DNA of 26,062 bases from Deltaproteobacteria bacterium TL4 (GTDB taxonomy: Bacteria; SAR324; NAC60-12), in assembly GCA_051382335.1 (NCBI GenBank), contig JBBCAX010000359.1, forward strand, positions 1-26,062, read 5' to 3'. Both the position numbers and the translations under genes were made by a program. Below the pieces are notes generated by a model, which was not told the origin of the DNA, made no database searches, and saw only the letters and a list, made by a program, of their open reading frames with translations. Position 1 is the stretch's first letter, and each line of letters starts with the position of its first letter. This document shows, piece by piece, positions 6,627-23,093 of the stretch.

Positions 6627-7292
6627 ATGCGTTTTAATAAAGGTTTTCTAATGTTCTTGGTATGTGGATTGATAGGGTTCTTTTCTTTCACCACAAGTAG
6701 TGAAGCCAAGTCATTCAAATATGTGGGCGTTGATAAATGCAAAAAATGTCACAAGAAAAAAGACGAAGGAGCTCAATACGACATTTGGAAAAAATCCAAA
6801 CTTTCAAAAGCTTTCGAAACTTTAAAATCTGATAAAGCTGCGGAAGTAGCCAAAAAAGCAGGAATCACCGGCAACGCTTCTGAAAGTCCAGAGTGCTTGG
6901 CATGTCACGTTACCGCGTTTGGTGTGGATAAAAAATCGTTGGACAAAAAGTTCAACGTGGAAGATGGCGTTCAATGTGAAGCTTGTCATGGTCCTGGAGA
7001 AAAATACGCTAGTAAAAAACCTAAAAAGGAGATCCCAAAGTTGAGAAAAGCTTTGGCTAAACTGAAAGAAGGTACCCCAGAGTACGCGAAAGTAGCTGCA
7101 GATCTCAAAAAAGAACGAGATGGTTTGGTAGCGTTAGGGATGACCTATCCTGAGGAAAAAGCCTGTAAGATATGTCACGCCGCAGAAATTACCGTTGGTG
7201 GAAAGACCTACAAAAACCCAAGTTGGGATCCTGCAAAGGGCTTCGATTTTGAAAAAGCCAAAAAGGATATTGCTCATCCCAGACTTAAATAA
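6627..7292 (+). CDS. Periplasmic tetraheme cytochrome c, c554-like family
   Basis: Sec signal (..SSEA/K); YVG..CKKCH, CLACH, GVQCEACHGPG, CKICH; very Lys-rich; RBS AGGAGG. Confidence 0.9.
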   Translation: MRFNKGFLMFLVCGLIGFFSFTTSSEAKSFKYVGVDKCKKCHKKKDEGAQYDIWKKSKLSKAFETLKSDKAAEVAKKAGITGNASESPECLACHVTAFGVDKKSLDKKFNVEDGVQCEACHGPGEKYASKKPKKEIPKLRKALAKLKEGTPEYAKVAADLKKERDGLVALGMTYPEEKACKICHAAEITVGGKTYKNPSWDPAKGFDFEKAKKDIAHPRLK

Positions 7293-7308
7293 TTCATAAT
7301 CAAACACA

Positions 7309-7451
7309 CCCGAGTCATGAAGATTCATGGCTCTTAACGCAAAGACGTTGAGGCCATCTGAAAGCCCTTTAGCGAAAGATCCTCTACGTTCTTTGCGTCT
7401 CTACATTGAATGAAGTCAACTTAACTTTGGTTCGGATTTGCCCCGGTTAGG
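7309..7451. repeat. Palindromic MITE-like insert (CC...GG ends, IS1380-like?)
   Basis: Hairpin GAGTCATGAA/TTCATGGCTC (7312-7333); inverted arms ACGCAAAGACGTTGAGG (7337-7353)/CCTCTACGTTCTTTGCGT (7381-7398); ends in TTTGGTTCGGATTTGCCCCGGTTAGG. No target duplication seen. Confidence 0.45.
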
Positions 7452-7631
7452 TTGAGAAGACTATTGGTATTCTTTAAGACTGCAAAATAGATAAGAGATG
7501 AAGCGCCATAAACCCTCGCAAACTTTTAAAGTACCCGTCGTTCGCCGTTTACTCCATCCCTTTTTACATTTGCTTAAAGAAGCGGAAACAGATGCCCCCT
7601 TTTGTTAATCACATAACTTAATGGTTTTTAT

Positions 7632-9155
7632 ATGCCTATTCAAGAAACAGAAACCCAGCCAGAGAGACCAACTCCGAAAACCGTATATAATTTAGTCAGC
7701 ATTGTTGGGGCGGCTATCGCTATTTTCGGTACCGTCGGCGAGGTGTTTTTCTTCGCGATGGAACTGATGTCCAGCCAAACTCCCGCCTATCAGGGGTTGG
7801 TTTATGTGTTGCTTTTGGTCCTGATCGTTGTGGGGCTCGGAACCTTCTTTTGGGGATATCGACGGGAGAAAAAACGTCGCCAGTCAGGGTTGGGGCCAGG
7901 GATCTCTGCCAAGTTCATCGCGGAAAATACACTGCTTATCTTTTTGTTCGGTATAGGCTTGATTGCCGCCTTGACCATTGTGGTGGGTATGGGGTCCTAT
8001 AAAGTTTACCACATGACAGAGTCTAACGAATTTTGTGGGCAAACGTGTCACAGTGTCATGAATCCTGAGTATGTGACCTACCACAGTTCCTCTCATGCCC
8101 GTGTCCGGTGTGTGGAATGTCATATCGGGTCAGGAGCCGGATGGTATGTCAAATCCAAGTTGTCAGGACTCAGACAGGTGATCGCGGTTGCCGCTAACAC
8201 GTATCCTCGTCCAATCGAAACCCCTATCCACAATCTGCGTCCTGCTCGTGAAACCTGTGAACAGTGCCATTGGCCGAAAAGATACATCGGCTACAAGGAA
8301 GTCATTCGTTCCTATTTCCTGTCAGATGAAAAAAATACACCGCTCAAGTTGAGAATGCTGATGAAAATTGGAGGGGAAAAGACAGGCTTCATGAAAGGTT
8401 CAGGTATCCATTACCATATGCTGCTCGCCGCCAAAGTGGAATATATTTCTCGTAGCGAAAAAAGGCAGGACATCCCTTGGGTTCGAATCCTCCGTGACGA
8501 TGGCAGTGTGACCGTCTACAATCATCAGGAAAAACCTCTCAGTGAGGCCGAAATGAAAGAGCTGCCCGTTCGCACCATGGACTGTATGGATTGTCATAAT
8601 CGGCCTGCGCATAAGTTTTTGACACCCATGGAAGCGGTCAATCGTGCCTTGGAGGAAAATGCTATTTCTCCTGAAATTCCGATGATTAAATTACAAGCTG
8701 TCAAGGCACTGGATGCTGATTATAAAACTACCGAAGAAGCACTCACGGGTATTGCCAGTAGCTTGCGTACCTATTACCAAAAAAATTATCCCGAGGTTCT
8801 TGAACAGGATCGATGGCAAAATACCGTCAAGGAAGTTCAACGTGTCTATCAAAAGAACATTTTCCCGGAAATGAACGCTAAATGGTCCGCTTATCCGGAT
8901 AACATCGGGCATCGTGATTGGCCTGGATGTTTCCGTTGTCATAACGACCAAATGAAATCCGCTGAAGGCGACACTATTTTTACCACGTGCAACAAGTGCC
9001 ATCTGCTGCTTGCACAGGGTCAGGAGGTAGATCAGGTGAATGTCGATTTTTCAGAGGGGTTGACCTATGTCCATCCAGGCGAGGATGAAGAATCCATGGA
9101 TAAATATACGGACTGTAGCGACTGCCATACAGGCGGTGCGGAAACATACAACTAA
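7632..9155 (+). CDS. imcH: ImcH-like inner-membrane NapC/NirT-domain multiheme cytochrome c (quinol dehydrogenase), 7 hemes
   Basis: Three N-terminal TM helices; FCGQTCHSVM (CX3CH), CVECHIG.GA.WYVKSKLSG, RPARETCEQCHWP, CMDCHNRPAH, CFRCH, CNKCH, CSDCH. This topology and heme count are those known for Geobacter ImcH. Confidence 0.82.
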   Translation: MPIQETETQPERPTPKTVYNLVSIVGAAIAIFGTVGEVFFFAMELMSSQTPAYQGLVYVLLLVLIVVGLGTFFWGYRREKKRRQSGLGPGISAKFIAENTLLIFLFGIGLIAALTIVVGMGSYKVYHMTESNEFCGQTCHSVMNPEYVTYHSSSHARVRCVECHIGSGAGWYVKSKLSGLRQVIAVAANTYPRPIETPIHNLRPARETCEQCHWPKRYIGYKEVIRSYFLSDEKNTPLKLRMLMKIGGEKTGFMKGSGIHYHMLLAAKVEYISRSEKRQDIPWVRILRDDGSVTVYNHQEKPLSEAEMKELPVRTMDCMDCHNRPAHKFLTPMEAVNRALEENAISPEIPMIKLQAVKALDADYKTTEEALTGIASSLRTYYQKNYPEVLEQDRWQNTVKEVQRVYQKNIFPEMNAKWSAYPDNIGHRDWPGCFRCHNDQMKSAEGDTIFTTCNKCHLLLAQGQEVDQVNVDFSEGLTYVHPGEDEESMDKYTDCSDCHTGGAETYN

Positions 9156-9183
9156 ACATGTCATAGCATTGAGGAGGATTTTG

Positions 9184-9996
9184 ATGATCAATATTCGTAT
9201 AAAACGGCATTTATTTGGGGGAAACACAGGTTTGGGTGTCGTGTTGGCCTTGGTTGTGCTAATATTTCTGGTGCCGGGAGGAATCCTGCTTGCGGAAGAA
9301 GTCGATAATTCCTGTGTGGATTGTCATAGTAATCCGGATTTCGTCGTGACTAACAAGAAGCTTTACAATTATTTTCAAGAATGGAAATTATCCACCCATC
9401 AGCAGGAAGGGATCACTTGTTCCGATTGTCATGGTGGAAATCCCAAGCTTACGGACAAGAATGCTTCTCATGGCGATAGTGTGGGGGAATCGAAAAAGAA
9501 AAATGCTGTTAATTTTGAAAATATTCCAGCGACTTGTGGTGAGTGCCATGAAGACATTTACAACGGGTATCGTCAAAGTCCTCACTTTAAGCATCTCAGC
9601 AAAAAGAACCAGGAACAACAGGGGCCGAATTGTGTCACTTGTCATGGTTCCATTAACGTAGCGGCTCTGAATGTCAACACCGTACAAAAAACCTGTGTGC
9701 AGTGTCATAACCAAAAAACAGGAAATCATCCTGATATTCCTGACAAAGCTCACCAGTTACTCAACAAGTTCCTCTCCCTCCATCGGTTTTACCGCTTCAT
9801 CAGTATCAGAGGCGAAGCTAAGGAGACGCGAGAGTTTCTTGAAAAGGTCGATGCGCAAATCGAAAGTCTGTCCAATAACTGGCATACCTTCGACCTTGAG
9901 ATCATTGAACTGAAAACCCAAAGTCTGCTTGAGTTACTCAAAGCGAAACGGAATGAAATAAAAAATCGGCAATCTCCACCTAAAGCAGGAAAATGA
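9184..9996 (+). CDS. Exported or membrane-anchored pentaheme cytochrome c with a helical C-terminus
   Basis: Start reassigned to ATG 9184 (RBS GAGGAGG at 9171); hydrophobic N-terminal segment; CVDCH, CSDCH, CGECH, CVTCH, CVQCH. Confidence 0.88.
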   Translation: MINIRIKRHLFGGNTGLGVVLALVVLIFLVPGGILLAEEVDNSCVDCHSNPDFVVTNKKLYNYFQEWKLSTHQQEGITCSDCHGGNPKLTDKNASHGDSVGESKKKNAVNFENIPATCGECHEDIYNGYRQSPHFKHLSKKNQEQQGPNCVTCHGSINVAALNVNTVQKTCVQCHNQKTGNHPDIPDKAHQLLNKFLSLHRFYRFISIRGEAKETREFLEKVDAQIESLSNNWHTFDLEIIELKTQSLLELLKAKRNEIKNRQSPPKAGK

Positions 9997-10739
9997 AAAA
10001 TTTTACTTACAGTCTGATCGGATTAATAACGCTTTTCATCGGATTCCTGGGAGGAACCGTGATTGTGCTTTCTTGCTATGACGCTACTGTTGCGGCAGCA
10101 GAGAAAGAAGACGGAAGCACAGAGGAAGGGGAACTCAAGTTGTCTCAGGACTCTGAAGTCACGCTCGGTAAAGTTCGTGACTTTTGGAAAAAAGAACAAA
10201 TCAAACACAAACGGCTCCTGCCGGAATTTTCTCCTTTTCGTGTTCCTCCCCGCAAAGAAACGCAACTGGAGGCGTTTCCCTGTTCGGATTGCCATGAAGA
10301 TGACGAAATCAATATTGACAAAGAACGCAAATTAACGGAAGAGCATCAAAGCATTGTCCTGGATCATGGAGGAGGCCGTTTTTGGTGTTTGACGTGTCAT
10401 AATTTGAAAAATATGAATTATTTACGCTCTCTCAAGGATAAAGAAATTGATTTTAATCAATCCTATTTGCTTTGTGGACAGTGTCATTCCCCCCGTCAGA
10501 AAGATTGGTTTCTGGGTGCCCATGGAAAAAGAGTGTCCACTTGGACTGGTGAGCGAATCATTTTGCTTTGTACAGAGTGTCACAATCCTCACTCCCCTTA
10601 CATCAAACCCAAACAGCCGGATCCTCCTCCAAAAAAACATAAAGGAGTTCTCCCTATGGATAAGCATTTAACCCAAAAGGAGCGAGAGACGAAATCCAAA
10701 TTTGATATGTGGAATTTCAAATTTGAAATAAAAAAATGA
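9993..10739 (+). CDS. Tetraheme cytochrome c subunit of NrfCD-type module 1 (CbcS-like)
   Basis: Signal/anchor; CSDCH, RFWCLTCH, CGQCH..RQKDW..G.HGKR, CTECHNPH; ATGA overlap with the upstream gene. Confidence 0.88.
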   Translation: MKNFTYSLIGLITLFIGFLGGTVIVLSCYDATVAAAEKEDGSTEEGELKLSQDSEVTLGKVRDFWKKEQIKHKRLLPEFSPFRVPPRKETQLEAFPCSDCHEDDEINIDKERKLTEEHQSIVLDHGGGRFWCLTCHNLKNMNYLRSLKDKEIDFNQSYLLCGQCHSPRQKDWFLGAHGKRVSTWTGERIILLCTECHNPHSPYIKPKQPDPPPKKHKGVLPMDKHLTQKERETKSKFDMWNFKFEIKK

Positions 10740-10780
10740 GTGTGAGTTACCAATATTTGAAAAAACGTATTAGGAGTTCC

Positions 10781-11749
10781 ATGTCAGATCAAGAAGATTC
10801 GAATCCTCAGGAGAATGAAAGCGCTCCTGTCAGTACAGTTTCCAGACGGGATCTGTTAAAGAAAATGGGGTTGGCAGGAGGAGTGGCTGCTATGGCAGCA
10901 GGAACCGCTTCAACGGTGGTCGCTAGTACCGTTGAGGGGGAAGCGTTTAGTGATGGACTTAAAGCGTTCTTCCAAAGTCATTACCAGCAGATGACCAAAG
11001 AGGAAATTGAAGAGGTTTTGGCACGTCTGGAACGCGGCGTAAAGCGGGAGTATGGTGTGGACATTCAGATTGAAAATACCCCTCCGATGGATAATGTCGT
11101 TTTCGGTTATGCGTTGAATATCTCAAAATGCAAAGGCTATCGTAAATGTGTTGGGGCCTGTATGAAGGAAAATAATACAAGCCGCGAACTCCAGATTCAG
11201 TACATTCGTGTTTTGGAACTGGATAGAGGTTCCATGAACCTTGAAAAATCAAACCATTATTACGATTCTGAAACGGTTCCTCTGCCAGGGAAAACCTATT
11301 TGCCCATCCAATGTCATCATTGTGAAAATCCACCCTGTGTCAGGGCTTGTCCTACGAAGGCGACCTGGAAGGAACCGGATGGGGTGGTGGTCATTGATTA
11401 CAACTGGTGTATTGGCTGCCATTATTGTGTAGTAGCCTGCCCTTACTGGGCGCGACGCTTCAATTGGGAAGCTCCTAATTTGCCGAAAGACGAAATCAAC
11501 CCCAACACTCACTACCTGGGGAATCGACCTCGGATGCGGGGTGTGATGGAGAAGTGTACCTTTTGTGTGCAACGGACCCGTAAAGGAAAATTACCCGCCT
11601 GCTTGGAGGCCTGTCCCACAGGTGCCAGGGTTTTCGGAAACCTGATGGATCCTAAAAGTGAAATTCGTTACATTTTGTCCACCAAAACCGTCTTTCGTCT
11701 GAAAGAGGAATTAAATACAAATCCCAAATTTTGGTATTATACGGATTGA
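10781..11749 (+). CDS. Tat-exported iron-sulfur subunit, NrfC/DsrO/CbcT-like, module 1
   Basis: Start at ATG 10781 (RBS AGGAG); twin-arginine SRRDLLK; CKGYRKCVGAC, CHHCENPPCVRACP, CIGCHYCVVACP, KCTFC...PACLEACP. Confidence 0.92.
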   Translation: MSDQEDSNPQENESAPVSTVSRRDLLKKMGLAGGVAAMAAGTASTVVASTVEGEAFSDGLKAFFQSHYQQMTKEEIEEVLARLERGVKREYGVDIQIENTPPMDNVVFGYALNISKCKGYRKCVGACMKENNTSRELQIQYIRVLELDRGSMNLEKSNHYYDSETVPLPGKTYLPIQCHHCENPPCVRACPTKATWKEPDGVVVIDYNWCIGCHYCVVACPYWARRFNWEAPNLPKDEINPNTHYLGNRPRMRGVMEKCTFCVQRTRKGKLPACLEACPTGARVFGNLMDPKSEIRYILSTKTVFRLKEELNTNPKFWYYTD

Positions 11750-11759
11750 GAGAAGAGCT

Positions 11760-12971
11760 ATGAATATACTTTACTTTTTTTGGGATGCAGGAAAAGAGAT
11801 CTTCAAGGGAGGGAAACATTACTGGAGTTGGATGGGCTTGTTGAGCCTGGGTGCCCTTTTTGGAATATACTGCTATGTCCAGCAATTTCACTATGGAGCA
11901 CTCCACACTACCGGTTTGGGTGAGGAAGTTCCTTGGGGGATTTATATCGCGAATTTCGCGTTTTTGGTGGGAATCGCGGCGGCCGCTGTGATGTTGGTCA
12001 TCCCTGCTTATATTTTTCATCACCAGGAAATCAAGAACGTGGTCATTTTGGGAAAAATGATTGCGGTGGCTGCCTGCATTATGTGTATCCTTTTCATTCT
12101 ATCAAGTTTGGGCCGCCCTGATCGGCTTTGGCACATCCTCCCCTTTATTGGCAGATTGAATATTCCAAACTCGATGCTGGCTTGGGATGTGATCGTCATC
12201 AATGGCTACCTGATCCTCAATATCATCATTCCTTTTTATATCCTTTACTCCAAATACATGGGGGGAGAGCCCAAAACAAAAATTTATTATCCCGGGGTGT
12301 TGATTTCCATTGGTTTCGCCATTTCCATTCATACCGTGACAGCTTTTCTGTTTTCCTCCAACGTTTCCCGTCCTTTTTGGCATACCAGTATCCTGGGACC
12401 CCGCTTTTTAGCCTCCGCGTTTACCTCGGGTACTGCACTGATGATCATCACGCTTCAGGTGATTCGTTCTCAAACCAAGTTCAAAGTGGACGAGGCCGTG
12501 ATTGAAGTTTTGGCGATAATCACTGCCATTTCGCTGCAAATTAGTTTGTTTCTGTTGGCGGTAGAATTATTTACCGATTTTTATAGCCAAACCCAACACG
12601 CAAGTTCGATCCAATATCTCTTTTTTGGTTTGGAAGGACATGCCTCTCTGGTTCCCTGGATTTGGACCGCTGTGGTTTTGAATGTGACTGCCGTGATCAT
12701 TCTCAGTATTCACAAACTTCGGGAAAATCTAAAACTCCTGAATGTTGCCTGTGTTCTGGTTATGGTGGGGATTTGGATAGAAAAAGGGATGGGACTGGTC
12801 ATCCCTGGGTTTATTCCGACTCCCTTGGGTGATATTGTGGAATATACTCCAACGTTTTACGAAACCGGGGTTTGTATTGGAATATGGTCTATCGGCGCCC
12901 TCATTTTTACGGCTTTGGCGAAAGTGGCTATTCCCGTTGAAATGGGTCTGCTAACACGGAAAAAATCGTAG
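11760..12971 (+). CDS. nrfD: NrfD/PsrC-family integral membrane quinol-interacting subunit (DsrP/CbcU-like), module 1
   Basis: About 10 TM helices; WGIYIANF.FLVG.AAAAVM, LGRPDR.WH, S.LAWD, SIHTVTAFL, GPRFLASAF, WIEKGMGLVIPGF. The symbol is family-level only. Confidence 0.9.
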   Translation: MNILYFFWDAGKEIFKGGKHYWSWMGLLSLGALFGIYCYVQQFHYGALHTTGLGEEVPWGIYIANFAFLVGIAAAAVMLVIPAYIFHHQEIKNVVILGKMIAVAACIMCILFILSSLGRPDRLWHILPFIGRLNIPNSMLAWDVIVINGYLILNIIIPFYILYSKYMGGEPKTKIYYPGVLISIGFAISIHTVTAFLFSSNVSRPFWHTSILGPRFLASAFTSGTALMIITLQVIRSQTKFKVDEAVIEVLAIITAISLQISLFLLAVELFTDFYSQTQHASSIQYLFFGLEGHASLVPWIWTAVVLNVTAVIILSIHKLRENLKLLNVACVLVMVGIWIEKGMGLVIPGFIPTPLGDIVEYTPTFYETGVCIGIWSIGALIFTALAKVAIPVEMGLLTRKKS

Positions 12972-13184: not shown

Positions 13185-13865
13185 ATGATATTCAATAAAG
13201 GGCAGAACGTTGACTCACCTAATGACGATGTTCTCACGTCAGAAAGCTTAGATATGGACTGGTTCGAAAAATTATTAGAAATCTACAAGACGGATAAAAT
13301 CTTGGCTTTCGGTATTATGGACAAAATTCCAGCCAAAAAACTTAACTATATCAAACTCCTTGAACTCCAAAAATCAGAAGATGCTGATGTTCGCAAGTTG
13401 GCCGCGGAGATGGCTTGGGACGTTCCCGCGAAACACCTGGACTGTGGGTGCCTCTTTGATTTTCAGGAATCTGACAATGCCCATGTCCGTGATTTGGCAG
13501 CAGAACTGTTGCAGCGAGTTACAAGTTCCCAACTCAACTATCATAAACTTGACGAATATCGAAAGTCCGAATCCCCACACGTCAGAAACAAGGCCGCTTT
13601 GCTGCTAATGAAATATTATGTCCAGCGTCTCAGCCATGAGAGACTCCTTGAGTTCCAGAAGTCAGATCAGAAGGAAGTCAAAATCAAGTCGACGGTGCTC
13701 CTGTTGAAGTATTTTGAAGAACAGTTTAGCGATGAGGAACTTTTTCAGTTGAGAGACTCAAAAGACAGTGACGTAAGTAATCTGACACGTAAAGCGTTAC
13801 GAAAACGAGCTCTGGAGTATAATACTGCCAAAAGAATCGAAAAGTACATTACCAAGTTTTTTTAA
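13185..13865 (+). CDS. Cytoplasmic HEAT-like helical repeat protein (32-aa repeats)
   Basis: Five repeats of consensus L.E.QKS....VR..AA.LL......L at 32-aa spacing; no signal peptide; RBS GGAG. Confidence 0.75.
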   Translation: MIFNKGQNVDSPNDDVLTSESLDMDWFEKLLEIYKTDKILAFGIMDKIPAKKLNYIKLLELQKSEDADVRKLAAEMAWDVPAKHLDCGCLFDFQESDNAHVRDLAAELLQRVTSSQLNYHKLDEYRKSESPHVRNKAALLLMKYYVQRLSHERLLEFQKSDQKEVKIKSTVLLLKYFEEQFSDEELFQLRDSKDSDVSNLTRKALRKRALEYNTAKRIEKYITKFF

Positions 13866-14082
13866 CGGCAGCGCTGGATTGTCTTCCCGCTCATTTTGTG
13901 GGGACGTGATCCTCAACCCTTACATCTGAAGGCAATTTCGCAGTAGCGGTTGGTTGGTGATGCCAGAGTAAATAAAGTGCTTGACGCTTAAAAAAGCCTG
14001 GACTTTATGTTTCAAAACGAAGAATATGCGAAATTTGTAATCGGTATCTCAGGTGAGTAACGTTCATTCTAAACAGTGTCTT

Positions 14083-15588
14083 ATGAAATACTTAGCCCTT
14101 TTCCTGTTGATTTCTCTTTGGCTGTTCCCCAGTTTCGCGTGGAGTAACGAAGATGAAAATGAAGATGAAGATGAAGATGAGGATACGGTCCAAACGTCGG
14201 AAGCTCAAAGTAGCGACGATGAAGATGAGGATGTGGTCGAAACGTCGAAAGCTCAAAGTAGCGACGATGAAGAAGATGAGGCTACGCTCGAAACGTCGAA
14301 AGATCTAAAAAAAGAGCATACTCTGAGCATGACGGGATATGTGTCCGGTAAATACCTTTCCAGAACAACTCAAGTTTTGGGTGATGAGGTCAAAGACACA
14401 GATCTCCAGGGGCAAATGCGTTTCGATGTGACGTCTCCTGCCAACTCCTATGAATTCCATTTTTTTGGTACGGTCAGTGGGGATCTGGATCAAGATTCAA
14501 ACCAGACCCGCTTTTCTCCCTTTGAAGACAGCAACAACACCGGAGCTGAGGACTGGAAACAATACCTGTATGAAGCCCATTTTGCTTGGAACCAGTTTCT
14601 TCCTCATTTCAAGCAACTGCGACTTGGCCGACAGTCAGGGACGCGTGATGAAATAGTCTATTTTGACGGACTTGCCTTCGATCTTGAGTTTTTCCAGAAG
14701 TTGGCTTTGGCAGTATACGGCGGGTTACCCGTTCATTTCTTTGACTTGGAGCAAAGTGACAATACGCTCAGTGGTCTGGGCGTTGATTATACCCCTCAAA
14801 AAAGCACCCGCTTGAGCTTGGATTACCTGTCCACTCAAGAAGTCCAGGAAGTGAGAGTCAATGAAAAGATTGAAGACTCTACGTTACAGGACTCCTTAAC
14901 TTCCTTGAAAATCTTGCAGTTTTTTTCACCTAATGCCAAAGGGATGCTCCGCTATCGCTGGATCAATGGGGAAAATCGTGACTTCAGATTCCGTTCCACC
15001 AATAAGATTACTGCTGTTGATCTTGAGTTGAACTTGGGTTATTTTAGGCAATTTCGTGTTCAGAATGTGTTGACTCAGGAACTTTCTCCTTTTTATCAGG
15101 TTCTGGGACAATCTTATCCCTTTCAAACGGTGGAATTCCAACTCAGAAAACCCTTTGGTGAACACTATGCCTGGGAGCTTGGCTACAATGAACGAAACCT
15201 TTTGGAAGATTATGAAGAAAGCGCCTTCAACCATGATTATAAACACCTCTATTCCGTGTTTGAAATTTATAACCGTCTGATGCAGGATTTGACCTTATCC
15301 GTTACAGCGGAGCGGTGGGAAAGCGAGCAAACCGTGGATTCCGCAGGCTGGGACATTAAGTATCAGAAACGGGGTGCCATGAAAACCAAGATTCAGATCG
15401 GATCCTATTATAGCCTCTATAAGTACGATGAATATTTTGATCGTGGCGAACAGGCTGATGTTCGAACCTACTATCTCAAAGGAAACTATCCTCTCGGTGA
15501 CCATTTTTCTGTCAATGGCAGTTATGAGATGGAAAACAGTCATGATGACTATAATGCTTTGAAAATGGGAGCAAAGTATGAGTTTTAA
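14083..15588 (+). CDS. Outer-membrane beta-barrel protein (putative porin of a porin-cytochrome conduit)
   Basis: Sec signal MKYLALFLL...SFA; alternating amphipathic strands; C-terminal MGAKYEF (BAM-type terminal Phe); the stop overlaps the start of the 12-heme gene. An alternative GTG start lies at 14053. Confidence 0.85.
   Translation: MKYLALFLLISLWLFPSFAWSNEDENEDEDEDEDTVQTSEAQSSDDEDEDVVETSKAQSSDDEEDEATLETSKDLKKEHTLSMTGYVSGKYLSRTTQVLGDEVKDTDLQGQMRFDVTSPANSYEFHFFGTVSGDLDQDSNQTRFSPFEDSNNTGAEDWKQYLYEAHFAWNQFLPHFKQLRLGRQSGTRDEIVYFDGLAFDLEFFQKLALAVYGGLPVHFFDLEQSDNTLSGLGVDYTPQKSTRLSLDYLSTQEVQEVRVNEKIEDSTLQDSLTSLKILQFFSPNAKGMLRYRWINGENRDFRFRSTNKITAVDLELNLGYFRQFRVQNVLTQELSPFYQVLGQSYPFQTVEFQLRKPFGEHYAWELGYNERNLLEDYEESAFNHDYKHLYSVFEIYNRLMQDLTLSVTAERWESEQTVDSAGWDIKYQKRGAMKTKIQIGSYYSLYKYDEYFDRGEQADVRTYYLKGNYPLGDHFSVNGSYEMENSHDDYNALKMGAKYEF
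14173..14303 (+). repeat. In-frame 48/51-bp tandem repeat encoding an acidic linker
   Basis: GAAGATGAGGnTnnGnTCnAAACGTCGnAAGCTCAAAGTAGCGACGAT twice plus a partial third copy, preceded by GAAGAT iterations. Confidence 0.9.
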
Positions 15589-16579
15589 CCGCGTCTCCAT
15601 AAGAAAAATGTCGATCTTCGCGCGTTTGAGTGTTATTTTGGCACTCTGGCTTTTCATGTCCGCGTGGAAGTTGTCTTGGCCATGGGCGGAAGAAAGCGCC
15701 CGAACCATTAAATTCCGCCATTCGATTCATGTTCAAAAAGAAGAAATGGAGTGTACCGATTGTCACGAAGGCGCAGTGGAAAAAGAGAAGGCGGGAATGC
15801 CTGCCAAAAAATTCTGCATGGATTGCCATGAGGAAAAAATGGACATGGATGACAAGGAAGGTTGTCTATTTTGCCATAACGTGGAAATCTCACAACTGGA
15901 TTCGATCACTGAGTTAGGTCGTCCGAAAGGCTCGTTGGGAATGGTTTTGGGACCAAAGCGCCTCAACAAGGATGTGAAATTTTCTCATAAACACCACGCT
16001 GAAAAAGAGGTTGGCTGTCCGAAGTGTCATGGTGATGTTGGCAAGGATGAGGGGCCTCTCATGCCTCGTGATATTTATGTACCAACGCAGGCTCAATGTC
16101 GTGAGTGTCATACTCAGGAACAGGTTTCTCTGGAATGTACGGTCTGTCACAAGACGTTCAACAAAGATAATCCTCCGGAGGGGCATCAAGGCGGTTGGCG
16201 AACTTTTCATGGGATGTCCGCCACTTTGAACCAAGTGGGACAGCATGGGAAGGATTGCCTCACCTGTCATGTGAAAAACGATTGTACGGCTTGTCATACA
16301 AGTGAAGCGCCAAGAGACCATACCCGTTTCTGGCGGACTCAGGGGCATGGCCTGATGGCAGGTTGGGACAGAGAACGTTGCTCCAATTGTCATCGACAGG
16401 ATTTTTGTGTGACTTGCCACAGTGAAACAGCACCACGGAGTCATGTCAGTAACTGGGATGCGAATCATTGTACTAACTGCCATTTAGAGTCTAACAGCAA
16501 CGCAGAAGGGGGTGGATGCAGGCTTTGCCATCGTCAACCCGCGCATTTGGATGCGATTAAATGGCCACCATTGAAGTAG
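15578..16579 (+). CDS. Periplasmic dodecaheme cytochrome c
   Basis: N-terminal signal; 12 CXXCH motifs: two c7/c3-like triheme units (FRHSIH, FSHKHH) followed by three P..H...W...H diheme repeats. Confidence 0.92.
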   Translation: MSFNRVSIRKMSIFARLSVILALWLFMSAWKLSWPWAEESARTIKFRHSIHVQKEEMECTDCHEGAVEKEKAGMPAKKFCMDCHEEKMDMDDKEGCLFCHNVEISQLDSITELGRPKGSLGMVLGPKRLNKDVKFSHKHHAEKEVGCPKCHGDVGKDEGPLMPRDIYVPTQAQCRECHTQEQVSLECTVCHKTFNKDNPPEGHQGGWRTFHGMSATLNQVGQHGKDCLTCHVKNDCTACHTSEAPRDHTRFWRTQGHGLMAGWDRERCSNCHRQDFCVTCHSETAPRSHVSNWDANHCTNCHLESNSNAEGGGCRLCHRQPAHLDAIKWPPLK

Positions 16580-16670
16580 TGGCACAGAAACATGGGCTGG
16601 AAAGTACAAGGACCGGAGTTTAACAAAAGAGTCTATTTATTAACAGTTGGCAGTTTAATTGTGTGTGATT

Positions 16671-18863
16671 ATGAAAAGCAGGATGAATGGAATGTTGAGA
16701 ATATTACTGTTGGGGGTGACTTCATTGATTTTTATCAGTTGCGGTACGCCTGAAGAGGGAAAAGATTCTATTGCCTCAGTCATTGACGGAAAAAAGGCGG
16801 CGACTGATGGCGAGGTTTTGTATCAGCAGTATTGTGCCTCCTGTCACCATGAATTGTCGAACACCAATAAGCCTAATCGAACTGCGGAAGGCATTCAAAA
16901 AGCCATTGAGGACAATGCCGGGAACGAACACGATGGATATATGGGAGACCTGAAGGGGCTTATTGGGAACTCAGGCGTAGTGAGTATGAAACTCGAAAAA
17001 ATAAAGTCTGCTTTGTTGAGAGAAGAGAGCCTTTCTGATGGAGATACACTTTATGCGGACTACTGTGCTGGCTGTCATGGCGCGCTTTCAAACAGCAAAA
17101 AAACCAGAAGAACGGCAGAGAGTATCCGGTATGCCAATCAGCAGGTAGCGGACATGAACTTTTTAAGTAATGTCCTTTCTCCAGCGGCACTTGACGCCAT
17201 CGGAAGTTCGCTGGCCTCCGCTCCGCTCCCTACCATTGCGGATTCGGATGGTGGCGTGCTATACACGGAGTATTGCTCAGGGTGTCATGGTCCTCTGGCC
17301 CAAACGGCAAAAGCACAGCGTCCGATTGCGAGTATCATTTACGCCAATCAAAACATTAAAGAAATGTCCTTTCTGAATGCGGTTCTTTCCGCGGAAGCGG
17401 TTAATTCCTTAGGTATTTCGCTGGCGGCCGTTACACCCTCCATTGCTGAGACCGATGGCACCGCGTTATACAGCTATTATTGTGCAGGATGTCACGGATC
17501 CTTGTCCAGTACAACCAAAGCACTGAGGAGTGTTGCCAGCCTTCAGTCTGCCAACCAGAACGTTGACGCCATGAAGTTTCTCACGCCTTTGCTATCCCCA
17601 ACCGCTTTGGGTAGTGTGGTTACTTCTCTGGCGACGATTACCCCCTCTTTTCCTGAGACGGATGGAGCGGGTCTTTACCGTTATTATTGCGCTGGATGTC
17701 ACGGGACTTTGTCTGTAAGCTCCAAAGCTAAGAGAAATTCCGCTAGTATCCTGTATGCCAGTGATAAAATTGAGGCGATGAAATTTCTCTTTCCGTTACT
17801 GTCTGCTACTGCGCTGTCAGCAATCGGAACCTCTTTGGACGGTGTGACTCCTCCTGATATCGCAAATTCGGATGGTGCCGCCATTTATAAATCCTACTGT
17901 TCCGGATGTCATGGTGCGTTAACTAACAGTACGAAAGCCAAAAGGAATAGCAACAGCGTTCAGTACGCAAATCAAAAAGTGGCCGCTATGGCGTTTTTGC
18001 AACCGCTACTTTCAACGGGAGACACCACTAAAGTTGCCGCAGAACTTGCTGGCGTTACGCTTTCAAGTGTCAGCGAGTCTGATGGTCCAGCCCTTTATCA
18101 GTCCTATTGTTCCGGATGTCACGGGGAACTGGCGAATACTGCTAAAGTTCAAAGAAGCGTTGCCAGCATTCAATACGCGAATGAAAAGGTCGGTGCAATG
18201 ACGTTTTTGAGCGATGTTAAAGTCCTGTCTTCGAACGCCATCAGCTCGATTGCGGCAACTCTTGGCACGATCAGTGCGCCAAACATCACTGCTGGAGATT
18301 CGCTTTACAGTGCGTATTGCGCCGGATGCCATGGAACATTGGCAACCAGTACGAAAGCTAAACGGAGTGCTGAAAGTATCTCTTACGCGAAGACAGAAAT
18401 TGAAGCTATGAAATTTCTCAGTTCTCTATTGTCATCCAATGCGTTAGCGGCCCTGGAAACCTCGCTTTCCACGACGACACTGCCCAGTATTTCTGAAACC
18501 GAGGGCACGGTTCTCTATGCTTACTATTGCTTAGGATGTCATAATGCTTCGGCCAAAGCCAGAAGAACGAAAGCTTCTATCGATTATGCTACCCTGGGAA
18601 TCAATGCCATGAATTTCCTCAGTCCCCTTCTTTCTTCCAAGTCAGTAACCGCAATAGCCGATTCCTTGGCAAATATGGCTCCCCCAACCATTGCGGATAC
18701 CGATGGTGTCGGCCTTTACGCTTATTATTGCTCAGGCTGCCATAGCGATACAATGATCGGCGTAACGGCAAAAGAAATTCAAAGTGCAATATCCATCAAC
18801 GCCATGCGATTCCTTAATACGCTTTCCACCACCCAAGTGAATGCGATTGCGGGCCTTCCATAA
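16671..18863 (+). CDS. Lipoprotein with ten tandem class I (His/Met) monoheme cytochrome c domains, PgcA-like
   Basis: Lipobox IFIS/CG; ten repeats of about 70 aa, DG..LY..YC.GCH...K..R...SI.YA.....M.FL..LS......I...L. The start could be 16671, 16683 or 16692. Confidence 0.9.
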   Translation: MKSRMNGMLRILLLGVTSLIFISCGTPEEGKDSIASVIDGKKAATDGEVLYQQYCASCHHELSNTNKPNRTAEGIQKAIEDNAGNEHDGYMGDLKGLIGNSGVVSMKLEKIKSALLREESLSDGDTLYADYCAGCHGALSNSKKTRRTAESIRYANQQVADMNFLSNVLSPAALDAIGSSLASAPLPTIADSDGGVLYTEYCSGCHGPLAQTAKAQRPIASIIYANQNIKEMSFLNAVLSAEAVNSLGISLAAVTPSIAETDGTALYSYYCAGCHGSLSSTTKALRSVASLQSANQNVDAMKFLTPLLSPTALGSVVTSLATITPSFPETDGAGLYRYYCAGCHGTLSVSSKAKRNSASILYASDKIEAMKFLFPLLSATALSAIGTSLDGVTPPDIANSDGAAIYKSYCSGCHGALTNSTKAKRNSNSVQYANQKVAAMAFLQPLLSTGDTTKVAAELAGVTLSSVSESDGPALYQSYCSGCHGELANTAKVQRSVASIQYANEKVGAMTFLSDVKVLSSNAISSIAATLGTISAPNITAGDSLYSAYCAGCHGTLATSTKAKRSAESISYAKTEIEAMKFLSSLLSSNALAALETSLSTTTLPSISETEGTVLYAYYCLGCHNASAKARRTKASIDYATLGINAMNFLSPLLSSKSVTAIADSLANMAPPTIADTDGVGLYAYYCSGCHSDTMIGVTAKEIQSAISINAMRFLNTLSTTQVNAIAGLP

Positions 18864-18870
18864 AGTCAAA

Positions 18871-18894: not shown

Positions 18895-18989
18895 AATCTC
18901 AGAAAATAGTTGTAGATCTGGAGTACCAAAGCTTGCTTTAGCCAAATGTCTGTAGGATTGTCAGTGCTTGTTTGGACCAAAATTTTGAG

Positions 18990-19028
18990 TTGAAAAACCT
19001 GTCCGGAAAGTATACGTTAGACATATAC
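18990..19028 (+). promoter_or_regulatory. brnTA promoter with an overlapping inverted repeat
   Basis: TTGAAA-17-TACGTT; GTATA-N9-TATAC (19010-19028) spans the -10, as expected for an antitoxin operator. Confidence 0.5.
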
Positions 19029-19050
19029 ACGCTGCTGAGAATAGAGGGAT

Positions 19051-19335
19051 ATGTTTACAGAATGTGACAGTTTTGATTGGGATGTTGGTAATTTAGAAAA
19101 AAACTGGATAAAACACAAAGTTTTCAAAAGTGAATGTGAACAAATATTTTTTAATATCCCATTGGTACTGTTAGAGGATGATGAGCATTCCATTGAAGAA
19201 AAACGTTATGTGGCATTATCCCAAACAGATGCGGGACGTCTACTCACAGTCATATTTACTATAAGGAAACATAAAATCCGCGTTATATCCGCAAGCGACA
19301 TGAGTCAAAAAGAAAGAAGGTTTTATGCCAAATAA
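19051..19335 (+). CDS. brnT: BrnT-family toxin
   Basis: FDWD.GN..KN..KH.V...E.E..F, H...E.R, L.VIFT.R...IRVISA; the usual SAR motif reads SAS here. Confidence 0.9.
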   Translation: MFTECDSFDWDVGNLEKNWIKHKVFKSECEQIFFNIPLVLLEDDEHSIEEKRYVALSQTDAGRLLTVIFTIRKHKIRVISASDMSQKERRFYAK

Positions 19336-19597
19336 AATACCTGAGTTCAAGAATGAGGATGAAGAACACGAGTTTTGGATAAATCACGATGTCACTGATT
19401 ATTTTGACATAAGCACAGCAAAACGAGTTAGCTTTTCAAAGCTAAAACCCTCCACAAAAACAATCTCAATTCGCTTGCCAGAGACGATGCTGGATTCTTT
19501 ACGTCTATTAGCCAATAAAAGGGATATCCCCTATCAGTCACTGATCAAAACCTTTTTGCAAGAACAAATTGATAAGAATTTTGAAAAAATTTCGTAG
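19325..19597 (+). CDS. brnA: BrnA/CopG-like antitoxin
   Basis: IPEFKNE.EE.EFW..HD..DYFD; RHH-like TISIRLP...L..L...A.KRDIPYQSLIK; overlaps the toxin gene. Confidence 0.88.
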   Translation: MPNKIPEFKNEDEEHEFWINHDVTDYFDISTAKRVSFSKLKPSTKTISIRLPETMLDSLRLLANKRDIPYQSLIKTFLQEQIDKNFEKIS

Positions 19598-19610
19598 AAC
19601 GAGACACGTA

Positions 19611-19711
19611 TAGTGCTCAAGATAAGTTTTGTCCTGGGAGCGAGGGCGTCCCGCCCTCCGGTGAGGGCAAGATGCCCTCGCTCCCAGGGAAAAAACTTTC
19701 CTGAACAGCTA
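19611..19711. mobile_element. MITE-like element (IS630-like, TA-flanked) with a REP doublet, copy 2
   Basis: TA|TAGTGCTCAAGATAAGTTTT...AAAACTTTCCTGAACAGCTA|TA; internal CTGGGAGCGAGGGC gtccc GCCCTC cggt GAGGGC aagat GCCCTCGCTCCCAG. Confidence 0.75.
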
Positions 19712-19957
19712 TAATAAAAAAATCAAGAAGGATTGGACGGATGCGGTTTTTTTTACTTGTGTTTTGTTCTGCTGCGAGTAAAGAGTTACCCTCTCCCAAC
19801 GTCTCCGGGAAAAGGTATCAGGAATAGGACATCAAGCCTTAAGACGGGAATTTTGATGGGTGCCGCTTCGCTAACCCCTCCTGCCAACCCCTCCTCGGAC
19901 GGCTCCTGGAGCAAAAACGACTTTTCGTGAATTCTGTGCATGTTGCATCAGTAATTG

Positions 19958-20115
19958 GGGGTTGGTCACATTTTCGGCCATGTGTCAAAAAACGGTCTTT
20001 GCTTTACCACCTGGTTTGGGTTTTGTTCTGTAGGCAGACCTGAGTGTCTGCCCGGGATCAGCGCGAACACACAGGTTCGCCCCTATAATTTGTGGCCGAA
20101 AATGTGACCAACCCC
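19958..20115. mobile_element. 158-bp MITE with perfect 23-bp TIRs and an 8-bp target duplication, carrying a GTAG-type REP pair
   Basis: TIR GGGGTTGGTCACATTTTCGGCCA (19958-19980 / 20093-20115); TSD AGTAATTG (19950-19957, 20116-20123); internal GTAGGCAGACctgagtGTCTGCCC and GCGAACacacagGTTCGCCCCTAT. Confidence 0.9.
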
Positions 20116-20152
20116 AGTAATTGAAAGAAAACCCTTTTGAAAATATAGAGTT

Positions 20153-20824
20153 ATGAAAATTTTTAAATTTTTCAGCAGGCTGAGGTTAGTGCTCATAGTG
20201 GCCTTGCTTCTTTTTGGGGGAGTGCCATTGATGGCCGATGAGGATGCGGATGAAGACAGTAAAGCGCCTCCGGTTCCCATGGAACAGATCCTTTCCTATG
20301 AAGAACAGGTGCCTGCTTTTAGGGTGAAAACCCGTAAAGAAAATTTGGAGGCCTATCCCTGCTCTGACTGTCATTTGGATGAAAAACCGAATCCGAAAGA
20401 GCGGGAGCTCAAAGAAGAACATGCAGATCTCAAACTGAAGCACGGAGAAGGGCGTTTTTGGTGTCTGACTTGCCATCATGAAACGGAAAGGAATTATTTA
20501 CGTTCCATGAAAAACAACCTTATTGATTTTGACCGACCTGATCGTTTATGCGGACAGTGTCATTTTCAACGTCAAAAGGATTGGCTCTTTGGGGGACATG
20601 GGAAGCGCTTTGGTACTTGGGAAGGTGTCCGTCAAATGTATTTGTGTACGGAATGTCATAATCCCCATGATCCTACGATCAAACCGCAGCCGCCCAATCC
20701 TCCTCCCCAGCCCAGAAAAGGGTTGCTTAGGCCGCCGAGCGCACATCCCTCCCATCATCTGGGTCACAGAGTATGGGAACGACAACAAATGCATCAGAGC
20801 AAGGAGGAATCCCATGGAAAATAA
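20153..20824 (+). CDS. Tetraheme cytochrome c subunit, module 2 (paralog of 9993-10739)
   Basis: Signal peptide; CSDCH, RFWCLTCH, CGQCH.QRQKDW..GGHGKR, CTECHNPH. Confidence 0.88.
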   Translation: MKIFKFFSRLRLVLIVALLLFGGVPLMADEDADEDSKAPPVPMEQILSYEEQVPAFRVKTRKENLEAYPCSDCHLDEKPNPKERELKEEHADLKLKHGEGRFWCLTCHHETERNYLRSMKNNLIDFDRPDRLCGQCHFQRQKDWLFGGHGKRFGTWEGVRQMYLCTECHNPHDPTIKPQPPNPPPQPRKGLLRPPSAHPSHHLGHRVWERQQMHQSKEESHGK

Positions 20825-21767
20825 ACCAGAGTTTCCAATAATCTCACCGGAGCTGACAAGGCGAGATCTGCTCAAAAAAGCAGGTGTTGTGAGCGCAACA
20901 GTCGCTACGGCCACCGTCGCAGGTACCGTTGTCGCCGGAGACGAAATGGAAAAGGGCCAGACGTTCAGTGAAACTGTCGCCGATTTTTTCCAAAAACATT
21001 ACAAAAGAATGACCCCAGAGGAGGTTGAAGAAGCCATCGCCCGTTTGGAAAACCAATATAAACGCAAATATGGAGTAGCTGTGAAGGTGGGAAATACGCC
21101 TCCTTTGGAGGGGGTCTTGTTTGGTTATGCCCTCAATCTCTCCAAGTGTAAAGGCCTTCGTAAATGTGTGGATGCCTGTGTCGCTGAAAACAATCAGAAT
21201 CGTGATTCCCAAATTCAATACATACGGGTACTCGAAATCGAGAAAGGCAGCATCAACATAGAAGAGGCGAATCACTATTACGATCCGGAAACCGTGCCTC
21301 AGGAGGATAAATTTTATCTACCAGTGCAGTGTCACCAATGCGAGGATGCCCCTTGTGTCAAGGCCTGTCCTACGAAGGCAACCTGGAAAGAGCCGGACGG
21401 GATCATTGTGGTTGATTACAACTGGTGTATTGGCTGTCGCTATTGCATGACCGCGTGCCCTTACTGGTCTCGTCGTTTTAACTGGAATGATCCGAAAATT
21501 CCGCAAAATGAACTTAATCCTGATACGCATTACCTGAGCAATCGCCCCCGGTTCAAGGGTGTTGTCGAAAAATGCACCTTTTGTCTCCAGAGAACACGTC
21601 AAGGCAGACTCCCGGCTTGTCATGAAGCGTGTCCTACAGGAGCCCGTGTTTTTGGTAATCTCCTGGATCCTGATAGTGATATACGTTACATTCTGAAGAA
21701 CAAAACGGTTTTCCGCTTGAAGGAAGACTTGAAAACAGATCCCAAATTTTGGTATTACACCGATTAA
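20814..21767 (+). CDS. Tat-exported iron-sulfur subunit NrfC/DsrO/CbcT-like, module 2
   Basis: Start at ATG 20814 (RBS AAGGAGG); TRRDLLK; CKGLRKCVDAC, CHQCEDAPCVKACP, CIGCRYCMTACP, KCTFC...PACHEACP; same PKFWYYTD C-terminus as module 1. Confidence 0.92.
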   Translation: MENKPEFPIISPELTRRDLLKKAGVVSATVATATVAGTVVAGDEMEKGQTFSETVADFFQKHYKRMTPEEVEEAIARLENQYKRKYGVAVKVGNTPPLEGVLFGYALNLSKCKGLRKCVDACVAENNQNRDSQIQYIRVLEIEKGSINIEEANHYYDPETVPQEDKFYLPVQCHQCEDAPCVKACPTKATWKEPDGIIVVDYNWCIGCRYCMTACPYWSRRFNWNDPKIPQNELNPDTHYLSNRPRFKGVVEKCTFCLQRTRQGRLPACHEACPTGARVFGNLLDPDSDIRYILKNKTVFRLKEDLKTDPKFWYYTD

Positions 21768-21884
21768 TCGTTGTTAGCGGTCATAAACATAATGTACTGA
21801 CGCGGGAGGGCCTTCCCGCAAAATAATCATCCCACTTTGGGTGGGTAGAGGACCAACCGAAACAGGTACCTCCGGAGGAAAACC

Positions 21885-23093
21885 ATGATAAAATTTTTTA
21901 GTTTTTTAATTGCTGTGATTCGAGAGTTCTTCAGTGGCAGCAAGTTGTTTTACGCCTGGATGACGGTTCTGACAGGCATTGTCCTGACAGGAGCGTGGTG
22001 TTATCGTTTGCAGCTCGAACAGGGATTGATCGTCACCGGAATGAGTGATCAGGTTTCATGGGGGATTTATATCGCGAATTTTGTTTTTCTGGTGGGCGTG
22101 GCCGCGGCGGCTGTGATGCTGGTGATTCCTTCCTATATCTTCCATGATCACCAACTCAAGCACGTTGTACTGCTGGCGGAAATGTTGGCCATTGCGGCTT
22201 GTATCATGTGCATGTTGTTTGTGACGGTGGATTTGGGACGGCCTGATCGGTTTTGGCATTTGATTCCTTACATGGGAGAATTTAATTTCCCGCTCTCCAT
22301 GCTGGCTTGGGATGTTGTGGTGCTGAGCGGCTATCTGGTTCTCAATATAGCCATTCCTTTTTACATTTTGTTCAGCAAATATAGAGGAAAGGAACCCAAT
22401 CTCCGTGTGTATTTTCCGTTTGTGGTGCTTTCGATTCTCTGGGCTATTTCCATCCATACGGTTACCGCCTTTCTGCTGACTTCCAATGTCGCTCGTCCTT
22501 TTTGGCATACCGCCATTTTGGGACCGCGTTTTTTGGCTTCCGCTTTCAGTGCGGGACCTGCTTTTTTTCTGCTGACCTTGCAAGTCATCAAGAAAAAAAC
22601 AACCTTTCCTGTGTCCCCGGTCGTGATCAGTCGGATCGCTATTATCGCTACAGTCGCTTTGCAAATTAATTTATTTTTGCTGTTAGCGGAAGTATTTACA
22701 GAATTTTATCATCAAACCGAACATGTTTCCTCCGCGAGTTATCTCTTCTTCGGAATGGCTGAAATGAAAGCGTTGGTTCCCTGGATTTGGAGCGCGATTG
22801 CCATGAACGTGACGGCTGTCTCTATTTTGACGATTCATTCTTTGCGAAACAATTCCTTCCTCTTGACGATTGCCTGCATTTTGATGGTGTTTGGTGTTTG
22901 GATTGAAAAGGGAATGGGGTTGATTATTCCGGGATTCATTCCCACCCCTTTAGGCGAATACTTTGAATACTCCCCTACCTGGATAGAGATCGGGGTCTCC
23001 CTCGGCGTTTGGGCTATTGGCCTGATCCTCTACACCGCCCTCGCTAAAACGACAATCGCCATTGAACAGGGAAAAATACGCATGAAACCGTAA
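21885..23093 (+). CDS. nrfD: NrfD/PsrC-family membrane subunit (DsrP/CbcU-like), module 2
   Basis: TGMSDQVSWGIYIANF, DLGRPDRFWH, SIHTVTAFL, GPRFLASAF, WIEKGMGLIIPGF; RBS GGAGG. The symbol is family-level only. Confidence 0.9.
   Translation: MIKFFSFLIAVIREFFSGSKLFYAWMTVLTGIVLTGAWCYRLQLEQGLIVTGMSDQVSWGIYIANFVFLVGVAAAAVMLVIPSYIFHDHQLKHVVLLAEMLAIAACIMCMLFVTVDLGRPDRFWHLIPYMGEFNFPLSMLAWDVVVLSGYLVLNIAIPFYILFSKYRGKEPNLRVYFPFVVLSILWAISIHTVTAFLLTSNVARPFWHTAILGPRFLASAFSAGPAFFLLTLQVIKKKTTFPVSPVVISRIAIIATVALQINLFLLLAEVFTEFYHQTEHVSSASYLFFGMAEMKALVPWIWSAIAMNVTAVSILTIHSLRNNSFLLTIACILMVFGVWIEKGMGLIIPGFIPTPLGEYFEYSPTWIEIGVSLGVWAIGLILYTALAKTTIAIEQGKIRMKP

Follow-up and report, generated by a model that had tools for sequence, protein, structure and literature searches.

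Gene content of the locus

The stretch analysed here (the window) is the entire 26,062-nucleotide contig C359 (JBBCAX010000359.1) of Deltaproteobacteria bacterium TL4, a member of SAR324 whose genome (G000; assembly GCA_051382335.1) is 6.59-Mb in size, 100 % complete and 2.6 % contaminated. Positions 6627–23093 of its + strand carry a cluster of multihaem cytochrome, porin and membrane oxidoreductase genes resembling systems for extracellular electron transfer (EET). As the window is the whole contig, no part of this cluster is truncated, and all of the open reading frames (ORFs) in the initial annotation were recovered at the same coordinates on the + strand. The seven co-oriented c-cytochromes and 46 haem motifs reported there were likewise reproduced: the proteins contain 4, 6, 5, 4, 12, 10 and 4 CXXCH motifs (sum 45), and the remaining motif is a CX3CH (CGQTCH) at position 135 of the ImcH-like protein. 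The CIGCH of the first iron–sulfur (FeS) protein belongs to an FeS motif and is no haem site. Across the genome, 21 ORFs have at least four CXXCH motifs and seven of these sit on the 26-kb C359, which in a 6.59-Mb assembly indicates that the clustering is not due to chance.

At least three blocks were recognized, namely an inner block (6627–12971), a conduit block (14053–18863) and a second CbcSTU-like block (20153–23093). In the sister genome G048 the same ten genes are contiguous and co-oriented, the last being a 10-haem gene, and the cluster of G049 also includes a 10-haem gene. No catalytic molybdopterin, NrfA, HAO or Dsr family reached the curated Pfam or NCBIfam cut-offs in the window, in agreement with the initial annotation.

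Porin and 12-haem cytochrome

The conduit block opens with a gene (14053–15588, +) for a predicted outer-membrane porin related to that of the Kuenenia porin–cytochrome (Pcc) system. An AlphaFold2 model built from 95 alignment rows (95 of 96 matches, P0089 excluded) gave a 22-strand beta-barrel without a plug domain and with an acidic disordered N-terminus (pLDDT 83.6). The best match of this model was the TonB-receptor barrel 5fp2 (Z 19.5, root-mean-square deviation 4.4, 353 aligned), and it aligns to 22-strand barrels. A search of PDB sequences with the porin profile gave no match at E≤1, and Foldseek and VIA returned generic barrels, with no solved cytochrome–porin among the matches listed. 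Three 48–51-nt repeats at 14167–14313 code for the acidic disordered stretch, the length of which differs among homologs.

The porin gene overlaps by 11-bp with that of a periplasmic cytochrome of 333 aa (15578–16579, +) containing 12 CXXCH motifs and 25 His. In its N-terminal half, haems 1–6 lie in two c7-like domains (c7, GSU1996 and ActA matches). Haems 1–6 are absent from all 22 short forms of this cytochrome, and haems 7–12 are retained in every one. Complex prediction of the porin with the 12-haem protein scored 0.67 against 0.01 for the best control, with runs sharing at least 54 % of contacts and a partner pLDDT of at least 60. The mark used for this score is reached by 116 of 157 solved pairs and 2 of 215 mismatched pairs. 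With the alignments used here these numbers apply only roughly, and the pass may partly reflect likeness to solved MtrAB. The confident interface involves cytochrome residues 167–248 (haems 7–10) and residues spread round the barrel. Haems 7–12 are a conserved core that is predicted to lie inside the barrel, the predicted insertion covering haems 7–10. Whether the porin folds as a barrel able to house the cytochrome had been set beforehand as a check on the initial annotation, and the models suggest that it does.

Porin loci in GTDB (61, from an alignment scan; a single-protein scan returned none) were distributed among the Nitrospirota, Planctomycetota including anammox bacteria, SAR324 and some Proteobacteria. 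A homolog of the 12-haem cytochrome, with 5–19 haems, was directly downstream of the porin in 60 of the 61, so that synteny of the pair extends across phyla. Another multihaem gene followed within 1.5 kb in 44 of the 49 loci with room for one. In some Nitrospirota-type loci (L002–L022, L047 and L052) the partner is a short 6–7-haem form, and a divergent 7–9-haem gene, usually present upstream of the porin, may stand in for the missing periplasmic half. The porin family comprises 884 representatives at 50 % clustering (E≤0.001), including Brocadia, Jettenia and Kuenenia. It has no Pfam or NCBIfam model (1–2 weak matches among 95 members), and annotation built on those libraries therefore misses it. 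Among named porin homologs, the best carry the title 'SAR324 cluster bacterium', and their loci belong to genomes of the family that contains TL4.

The pair is similar to the Pcc of 'Ca. Kuenenia stuttgartiensis' (kuste4024/4025; PMC4245776), with a porin of 18–22 strands followed by a 12–14-haem periplasmic cytochrome of ~340 aa. For Kuenenia, Shi et al. (2014) report a single Pcc cluster, comprising a porin and a 14-haem cytochrome of 338–344 aa (PMC4245776). The TL4 porin is 25 % identical over 429 aa (E 4e-29) to the Kuenenia protein P0343 (CAJ74787), and locus L043, sister to that protein in the porin tree, has a 338-aa 14-haem gene downstream. Judging from size, haem count and the single-cluster statement, CAJ74787 is probably the kuste4024/4025-type porin; no paper or locus-tag match linking CAJ74787/Q1Q443 to kuste4024 was found in the literature searched. 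A Brocadia ortholog of kuste4024/4025 is expressed during electrode respiration (10.1101/855817). Unlike the Kuenenia Pcc, the TL4 locus adds a third, PgcA-like gene and inner-membrane modules.

As in MtrCAB and MtoAB, a cytochrome, here predicted to sit in a barrel, is combined with a putative surface cytochrome; unlike in those systems, the porin is smaller and the cytochrome c7-based. An MtrAB identity was rejected, as PF11854 (MtrB_PioB) was found in none of 88 SAR324 genomes, TL4 included, and matched none of the 95 porin family members. The five SAR324 porins formed their own clade next to Nitrospirota (FastTree, 60 rows, five short loci excluded; support 83), which makes recent transfer into TL4 unlikely.

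Predicted ten-domain PgcA-like lipoprotein

The third gene of the conduit block (16659–18863, +) encodes a predicted lipoprotein with ten tandem PgcA-like monohaem domains, which match the PgcA domains 8qj6 and 8qjg in PDB (E 1.3e-6 and 1.9e-6). The domains are spaced 67–77 aa apart, giving a 210-bp period in the DNA. A Met lies 21–26 residues past the haem His in domains 2–10, and nine of the ten domains look His/Met. We infer a surface location for this protein.

PgcA of Geobacter sulfurreducens helps Fe(III)-oxide reduction (PMC5732950) and shares with the TL4 protein, a predicted lipoprotein, the tandem monohaem domains, here homologous to its domains I and II, and the His/Met pattern (PMC11520253, PMC5732950). 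The TL4 protein differs in having ten domains rather than three (1–6 in the Geobacter homologs discussed in those sources) at a spacing of 67–77 instead of 91–94 aa. It also lacks the (PT)x or (PA)x linkers and a clear His/His mineral-binding domain. TL4 is not alone in having a long array: at least ten domains were counted with a loose pattern in 11 of the 120 homologs listed (of 199 found; query included). The best homolog, P0098, is labelled 'Ca. Methanoperedens sp.' and has 11 domains in 1024 aa.

Inner-membrane modules

The inner block begins with a tetrahaem cytochrome c554-like protein (6627–7292, +) that has a signal peptide, four CXXCH motifs and matches to PF13435 (E 2.6e-20) and to c554 in PDB (1bvb, E 7.9e-9). 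It is likely a periplasmic shuttle, and its gene was found again next to ImcH or CbcSTU genes in G048, G006, G008, G019 and G078. The following gene (7632–9155, +) encodes an ImcH-type inner-membrane quinol dehydrogenase with NapC/NrfH matches, whose seven haems correspond to six CXXCH motifs and the CX3CH. Like ImcH of G. sulfurreducens (10.1101/2023.05.03.539133), it has 507 aa, three transmembrane helices, seven haems and the E/H/K/Q/Y of the quinol site: E130, H140, K176, Q182 and Y191 equal the published E127, H137, K173, Q179 and Y188 at a constant +3, a positional offset rather than an alignment. Unlike in G. sulfurreducens, the ImcH-type gene is beside a porin conduit, and no PpcA-type trihaem partner was found among the multihaem ORFs of the TL4 genome.

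A pentahaem cytochrome with five CXXCH motifs and a C-terminal three-helix bundle (model pLDDT 84) accompanies the first CbcSTU-like set (9067–9996, +); its true start probably lies 3′ of 9067. Foldseek found no match for the model at E≤0.001, a wide search returned helical-bundle matches only, and Atlas returned only unnamed multihaem clusters. Metagenome loci with this protein numbered 79 (from the best 80 of 381), 27 of them at least 6 kb long, and a CbcU-like gene was present in 17 of these 27. An alignment of 67 rows from 66 of the 79 loci (13 excluded for stops or for partial or duplicate matches) contained four invariant non-motif His for the five haems, so that the pentahaem protein may have a catalytic role. 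It has no CXXCK active site, and its sequence matches to NrfA are weak (E 3e-4 to 9e-3).

The first CbcSTU-like set consists of a membrane-anchored tetrahaem CbcS-like protein (9993–10739, +; four CXXCH, N-terminal helix), a CbcT-like FeS protein with a twin-arginine translocation (Tat)-type leader (10736–11749, +; Fer4_11 E 2.3e-21, SRRDLL) and a CbcU-like integral membrane subunit of the NrfD/DsrP type (11760–12971, +; PF03916 E 5e-41, ~10 hydrophobic segments). The second set repeats this order with a paralogous tetrahaem protein (20153–20824, +; four CXXCH), a CbcT-like protein (20814–21767, +; Fer4_11 E 5e-21, TRRDLL) and a CbcU-like protein (21885–23093, +; PF03916 E 2.7e-42). Identities between the two copies are 61 % over 139 aa for CbcS, 65 % for CbcT and 59 % for CbcU. 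The two Tat-FeS/NrfD modules of the initial annotation are therefore real, with two RR-leader Fer4_11 proteins and two NrfD proteins.

In their order of anchored tetrahaem, FeS and integral membrane subunits, these sets are likened by architecture to Cbc4/CbcSTU of G. sulfurreducens (GSU0068–0070; 10.1101/2025.04.14.648717). Unlike that system, TL4 has two paralogous copies (59–65 % identical) and a conserved pentahaem companion. The FeS subunit of Cbc4/CbcSTU is described as holding four [4Fe-4S] clusters. The CbcT-like proteins have 15 Cys each and lack the second Cys of the first FeS motif (CxxYxxC or CxxLxxC), so that one [3Fe-4S] is likely, as in ActB/QrcC. The earlier assignments as ImcH, CbcSTU-like and PgcA-like thus hold on the ImcH residues, the trio architecture and the 8qj6/8qjg matches, respectively.

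A DsrMKJOP identity was rejected: the DsrP model was over its cut-off in CbcU-like copy 1 and, for CbcT-like copy 1, DsrO scored 195.6 against a cut-off of 200, but no DsrM, DsrK or DsrJ match was found in the window. Matches to PF01077 occur elsewhere in the genome, on C173 and C150, and the C150 protein scores as NirB/NirA-like, not as DsrA/B.

Layout and flanking genes

By its layout, 6627–23093 is not one operon, contrary to the single unit of the initial annotation. The span is interrupted by spacers of 339, 213, 187, 187 and 555 bp and divided by two insertions between the blocks. The first is an ORF with weak HEAT-repeat matches (13185–13865, +) that had no homolog in the related clusters compared and is probably outside the system. 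The second is a BrnT/BrnA-type toxin–antitoxin pair (19051–19597, +; PF04365 E 7e-20, PF12441 E 3.5e-32), which is not in the pathway. A promoter scan of the window gave 25 sites against 26.6 expected, and no use was made of it. For 14053–18863 the RNA listing showed no holder, which says nothing for or against expression. Intergenic palindromes, some perfect over 23 nt, occur at 19614–19707, 19958–20115, 23311–23371 and 23448–23642; they flank the second CbcSTU-like block and are like small REP-type hairpin repeats.

Upstream of the cluster are a 7TM-DISM hybrid kinase with SpoIIE output (483–3911, −) and a GST-like and a DUF1330-like gene (4357–6282). A Schlafen/AlbA-HATPase-HTH gene and a ParD-like gene (23870–25772) are downstream. 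Mis-binning of C359 is unlikely, given its tetranucleotide distance rank of 94 among 117 contigs, a correlation of 0.946 between the locus and the genome mean, and the same genes in G048.

Other respiratory and multihaem genes in the genome

Two OmcA/MtrC-family proteins were found on other contigs, a decahaem protein on C207 (over cut-off) and one on C397 (under cut-off). An Rnf-like operon on C25 (L089) is directly followed by a CbcL-like 13/19-haem pair, and one on C62 (L090) by an Hmc-like set of 16-haem, FeS and NrfD–pentahaem fusion genes. With CbcL-like, OmcA/MtrC-like and Hmc-like genes on other contigs, the locus is not the entire EET inventory, and its earlier description as self-contained was overstated. 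The genome also encodes a NiFe hydrogenase and a complex I subunit, and genome searches did not find NrfA or MtrB. On C93 (L084:3711–12608), a Tat FeS protein and a Tat molybdenum (Mo) enzyme, Psr/Phs-like and under all cut-offs, occur with TorD-like and cofactor genes and with no NrfD on the contig; this Mo enzyme is a candidate periplasmic electron sink. A regex screen for marker genes was weak and was used for leads only. In three further SAR324 loci (L121, L124 and L127, of G008, G006 and G021), ImcH or MtrC-like genes are beside a conserved dihaem ORF, with neither MtrB nor a porin of the TL4 family.

Proposed pathway and alternatives

The gene content, motif counts, ImcH residues, porin–cytochrome adjacency and homology to PgcA domains and the Kuenenia porin suggest that the locus encodes an outward EET chain, to which a probability of roughly 0.6 is assigned; its direction, partner order and acceptor are what we infer. 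ImcH and the two CbcSTU-like complexes would oxidize membrane quinol, with the c554-like and pentahaem cytochromes as periplasmic carriers that would deliver the electrons to the c7-like half of the 12-haem cytochrome. That cytochrome is predicted to thread the 22-strand porin. At the cell surface, the ten-domain lipoprotein would pass the electrons on to Fe(III) or Mn(IV) oxides or humics. The chain would probably be completed from elsewhere, by the OmcA/MtrC-type decahaem protein (C207) and the CbcL-like pair (C25).

Several observations, here and under the alternatives below, weigh against an outward chain. The lipobox-like FISC that ends the hydrophobic leader of the ten-domain protein has Phe at −3 and is missed by a strict lipobox regex. 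Iron oxide binding by PgcA was found for the His/His domain III only and not for the His/Met domains (PMC11520253), so the ten-domain protein may act as a relay or store charge while the C207 protein makes contact with the mineral. Mutants of cbcS showed wild-type growth on Fe/Mn oxides (10.1101/2025.04.14.648717), and ImcH or CbcU genes were present in only 10 of 35 porin loci of at least 15 kb.

One alternative is an inward conduit, in which electrons from Fe(II), reduced minerals or humics would enter at the surface haems and travel by way of the NrfD modules and c554-like protein to the quinone pool or to cbb3/aa3 oxidases. For a heterotroph living at the oxic–anoxic boundary, this would supplement the energy supply. 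The TL4 genome encodes a cbb3 oxidase (over cut-off), an aa3-like oxidase and alternative complex III, which makes inward electron flow possible. His/Met haems are usually higher in potential, which also counts for inward flow. PgcA-like arrays occur in proteins named from Sideroxydans and Sideroxyarcus (P0121, P0157), with further homologs named from Nitrosomonadales, and porin–cytochrome pairs without a fixed outer cytochrome are known in Fe(II) oxidizers (PMC4245776). However, ImcH, CbcL-like and OmcA/MtrC proteins have been characterized in reducers and genome searches found no RuBisCO in TL4, and an inward direction is considered unlikely.

A second alternative is that the ImcH, c554-like, pentahaem and CbcSTU-like genes form a general quinol-to-periplasm hub feeding mainly soluble terminal enzymes, such as the C93 Tat Mo enzyme, and that the porin trio is separate and merely nearby. 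From its gene neighbourhoods, the inner block does appear to be a general quinol hub. ImcH matches were found in 14 of the 88 SAR324 genomes and the porin in five of those 14. Five of eight regions fetched from porin-less genomes (G006, G008, G009, G019 and G078) had ImcH with c554-like, pentahaem, CbcSTU-like or CbcL-like genes, ORF pruning being unreliable in these GC-rich regions, and in G078 the ImcH block adjoins a Tat Mo enzyme. Among the pentahaem metagenome loci, 6 of the 27 long ones had a Mo enzyme and none of the 79, most of them short, had a porin of the TL4 type. The C93 genes without NrfD, the HEAT and toxin–antitoxin genes that break up the span, and the four invariant spare His of the pentahaem protein point the same way.

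The quinone-to-surface module of the initial annotation is therefore upheld in part: its components are present, but the inner module is often found where the porin is absent and in some cases beside a Mo enzyme. Against a chance neighbourhood, all five porin-bearing SAR324 genomes have ImcH on the same contig or in the same cluster (the G087 cluster being split over two contigs), and the ten genes are contiguous and co-oriented in G048. The second alternative as a whole is considered improbable.

Co-occurrence with magnetosome genes

Homologs of MamE, P, Q, T, K, M, O and A were found on contig C333 of the TL4 genome, MamK and MamM over cut-offs. This region (L077:5061–19613) includes two MamE-like genes, and there are two mamK copies, the second at C333:1555–2556. 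Magnetotactic SAR324 genomes have already been reported (PMC7602337), in a paper whose main text does not contain the words 'cytochrome' or 'electron transfer'. The porin was present in five of the 88 SAR324 genomes (G000, G046, G048, G049 and G087), and MCR domains together with MamK only in G000, G046, G048 and G049. All four genomes with magnetosome genes thus have the porin, compared with 1 of the 84 others. Of the 45 genomes of the family, the same four are those with the porin, with ImcH and with magnetosome genes (porin 4/4 vs 0/41). Fisher p values of ~1e-5 to 1e-6 ignore kinship and were not relied on.

The four genomes were not one clade in a quick RpoB tree (29 of the 88 genomes; G063 excluded for a split gene). 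G046 paired with G047 and G049 with G043, neither partner having the two traits, and G000 and G048 were sister to seven genomes without porin and magnetosome genes. A single SAR324 porin clade with scattered carriers fits old inheritance with repeated loss. A causal link is argued against by the small number of genomes, incomplete metagenome-assembled genomes (MAGs; G047 is 88 % complete), a probable shared habitat and sampling. Also against it, the conduit (C359) and the magnetosome genes (C333) are not physically linked, G087 is an exception, and other SAR324 that lack magnetosome genes have ImcH or MtrC-like genes.

It is very doubtful that the main job of the system is iron supply for magnetosomes, by reducing Fe(III) at the surface so that Fe(II) can be taken up, or redox buffering, by storing charge while the cell swims across a redox gradient. 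The matching, scattered distribution of the two traits favours this reading, but the gene sets are unlinked, members of the porin family are common among Nitrospirota and among Planctomycetota including anammox bacteria, G087 has the porin without magnetosome genes, and a shared sediment habitat, sampling and MAG gaps can explain the match.

For the outward chain, the outcome would be that a facultative, oxygen-respiring magnetotactic cell keeps respiring below the oxic–anoxic boundary. As a tentative and rather speculative extension, magnetotactic SAR324 could be electroactive, with magnetosomes and an ancestral conduit kept or lost together across the family. A single wire ending in a ten-bead haem chain would then serve mineral respiration, and possibly iron mobilization for magnetite, in cells navigating between oxygen and solid Fe/Mn acceptors.

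Novelty and significance

The initial annotation noted that Geobacter encodes these functions at separate loci. Co-location of quinol-side cytochrome genes with porin–cytochrome genes has already been described (PMC4245776). Clusters across both membranes are also described in 10.64898/2026.05.27.727921, PMC7399161 and PMC10732223. Its suggestion of a lineage not known to be electroactive agrees with the literature search: no report of a SAR324 porin–cytochrome conduit or of its magnetosome link was found among the open-access titles and starts of abstracts listed, and supplementary annotation tables may list the genes. Cyc2-like genes have been reported in SAR324 (PMC9769843), and the accessible text of PMC12133095 does not mention SAR324. 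Each part of the locus is of a known kind, and what is new is this arrangement in SAR324, a lineage for which no EET conduit report was found.

The locus provides a concrete, testable EET pathway in SAR324, a phylum known mostly from studies of the marine water column, and links that pathway to magnetosome-bearing members. If the proposal is true, the part of some magnetotactic bacteria in iron cycling would go beyond that of a sink to include mineral respiration, and magnetotaxis would serve a new purpose in shuttling between oxygen and solid acceptors.

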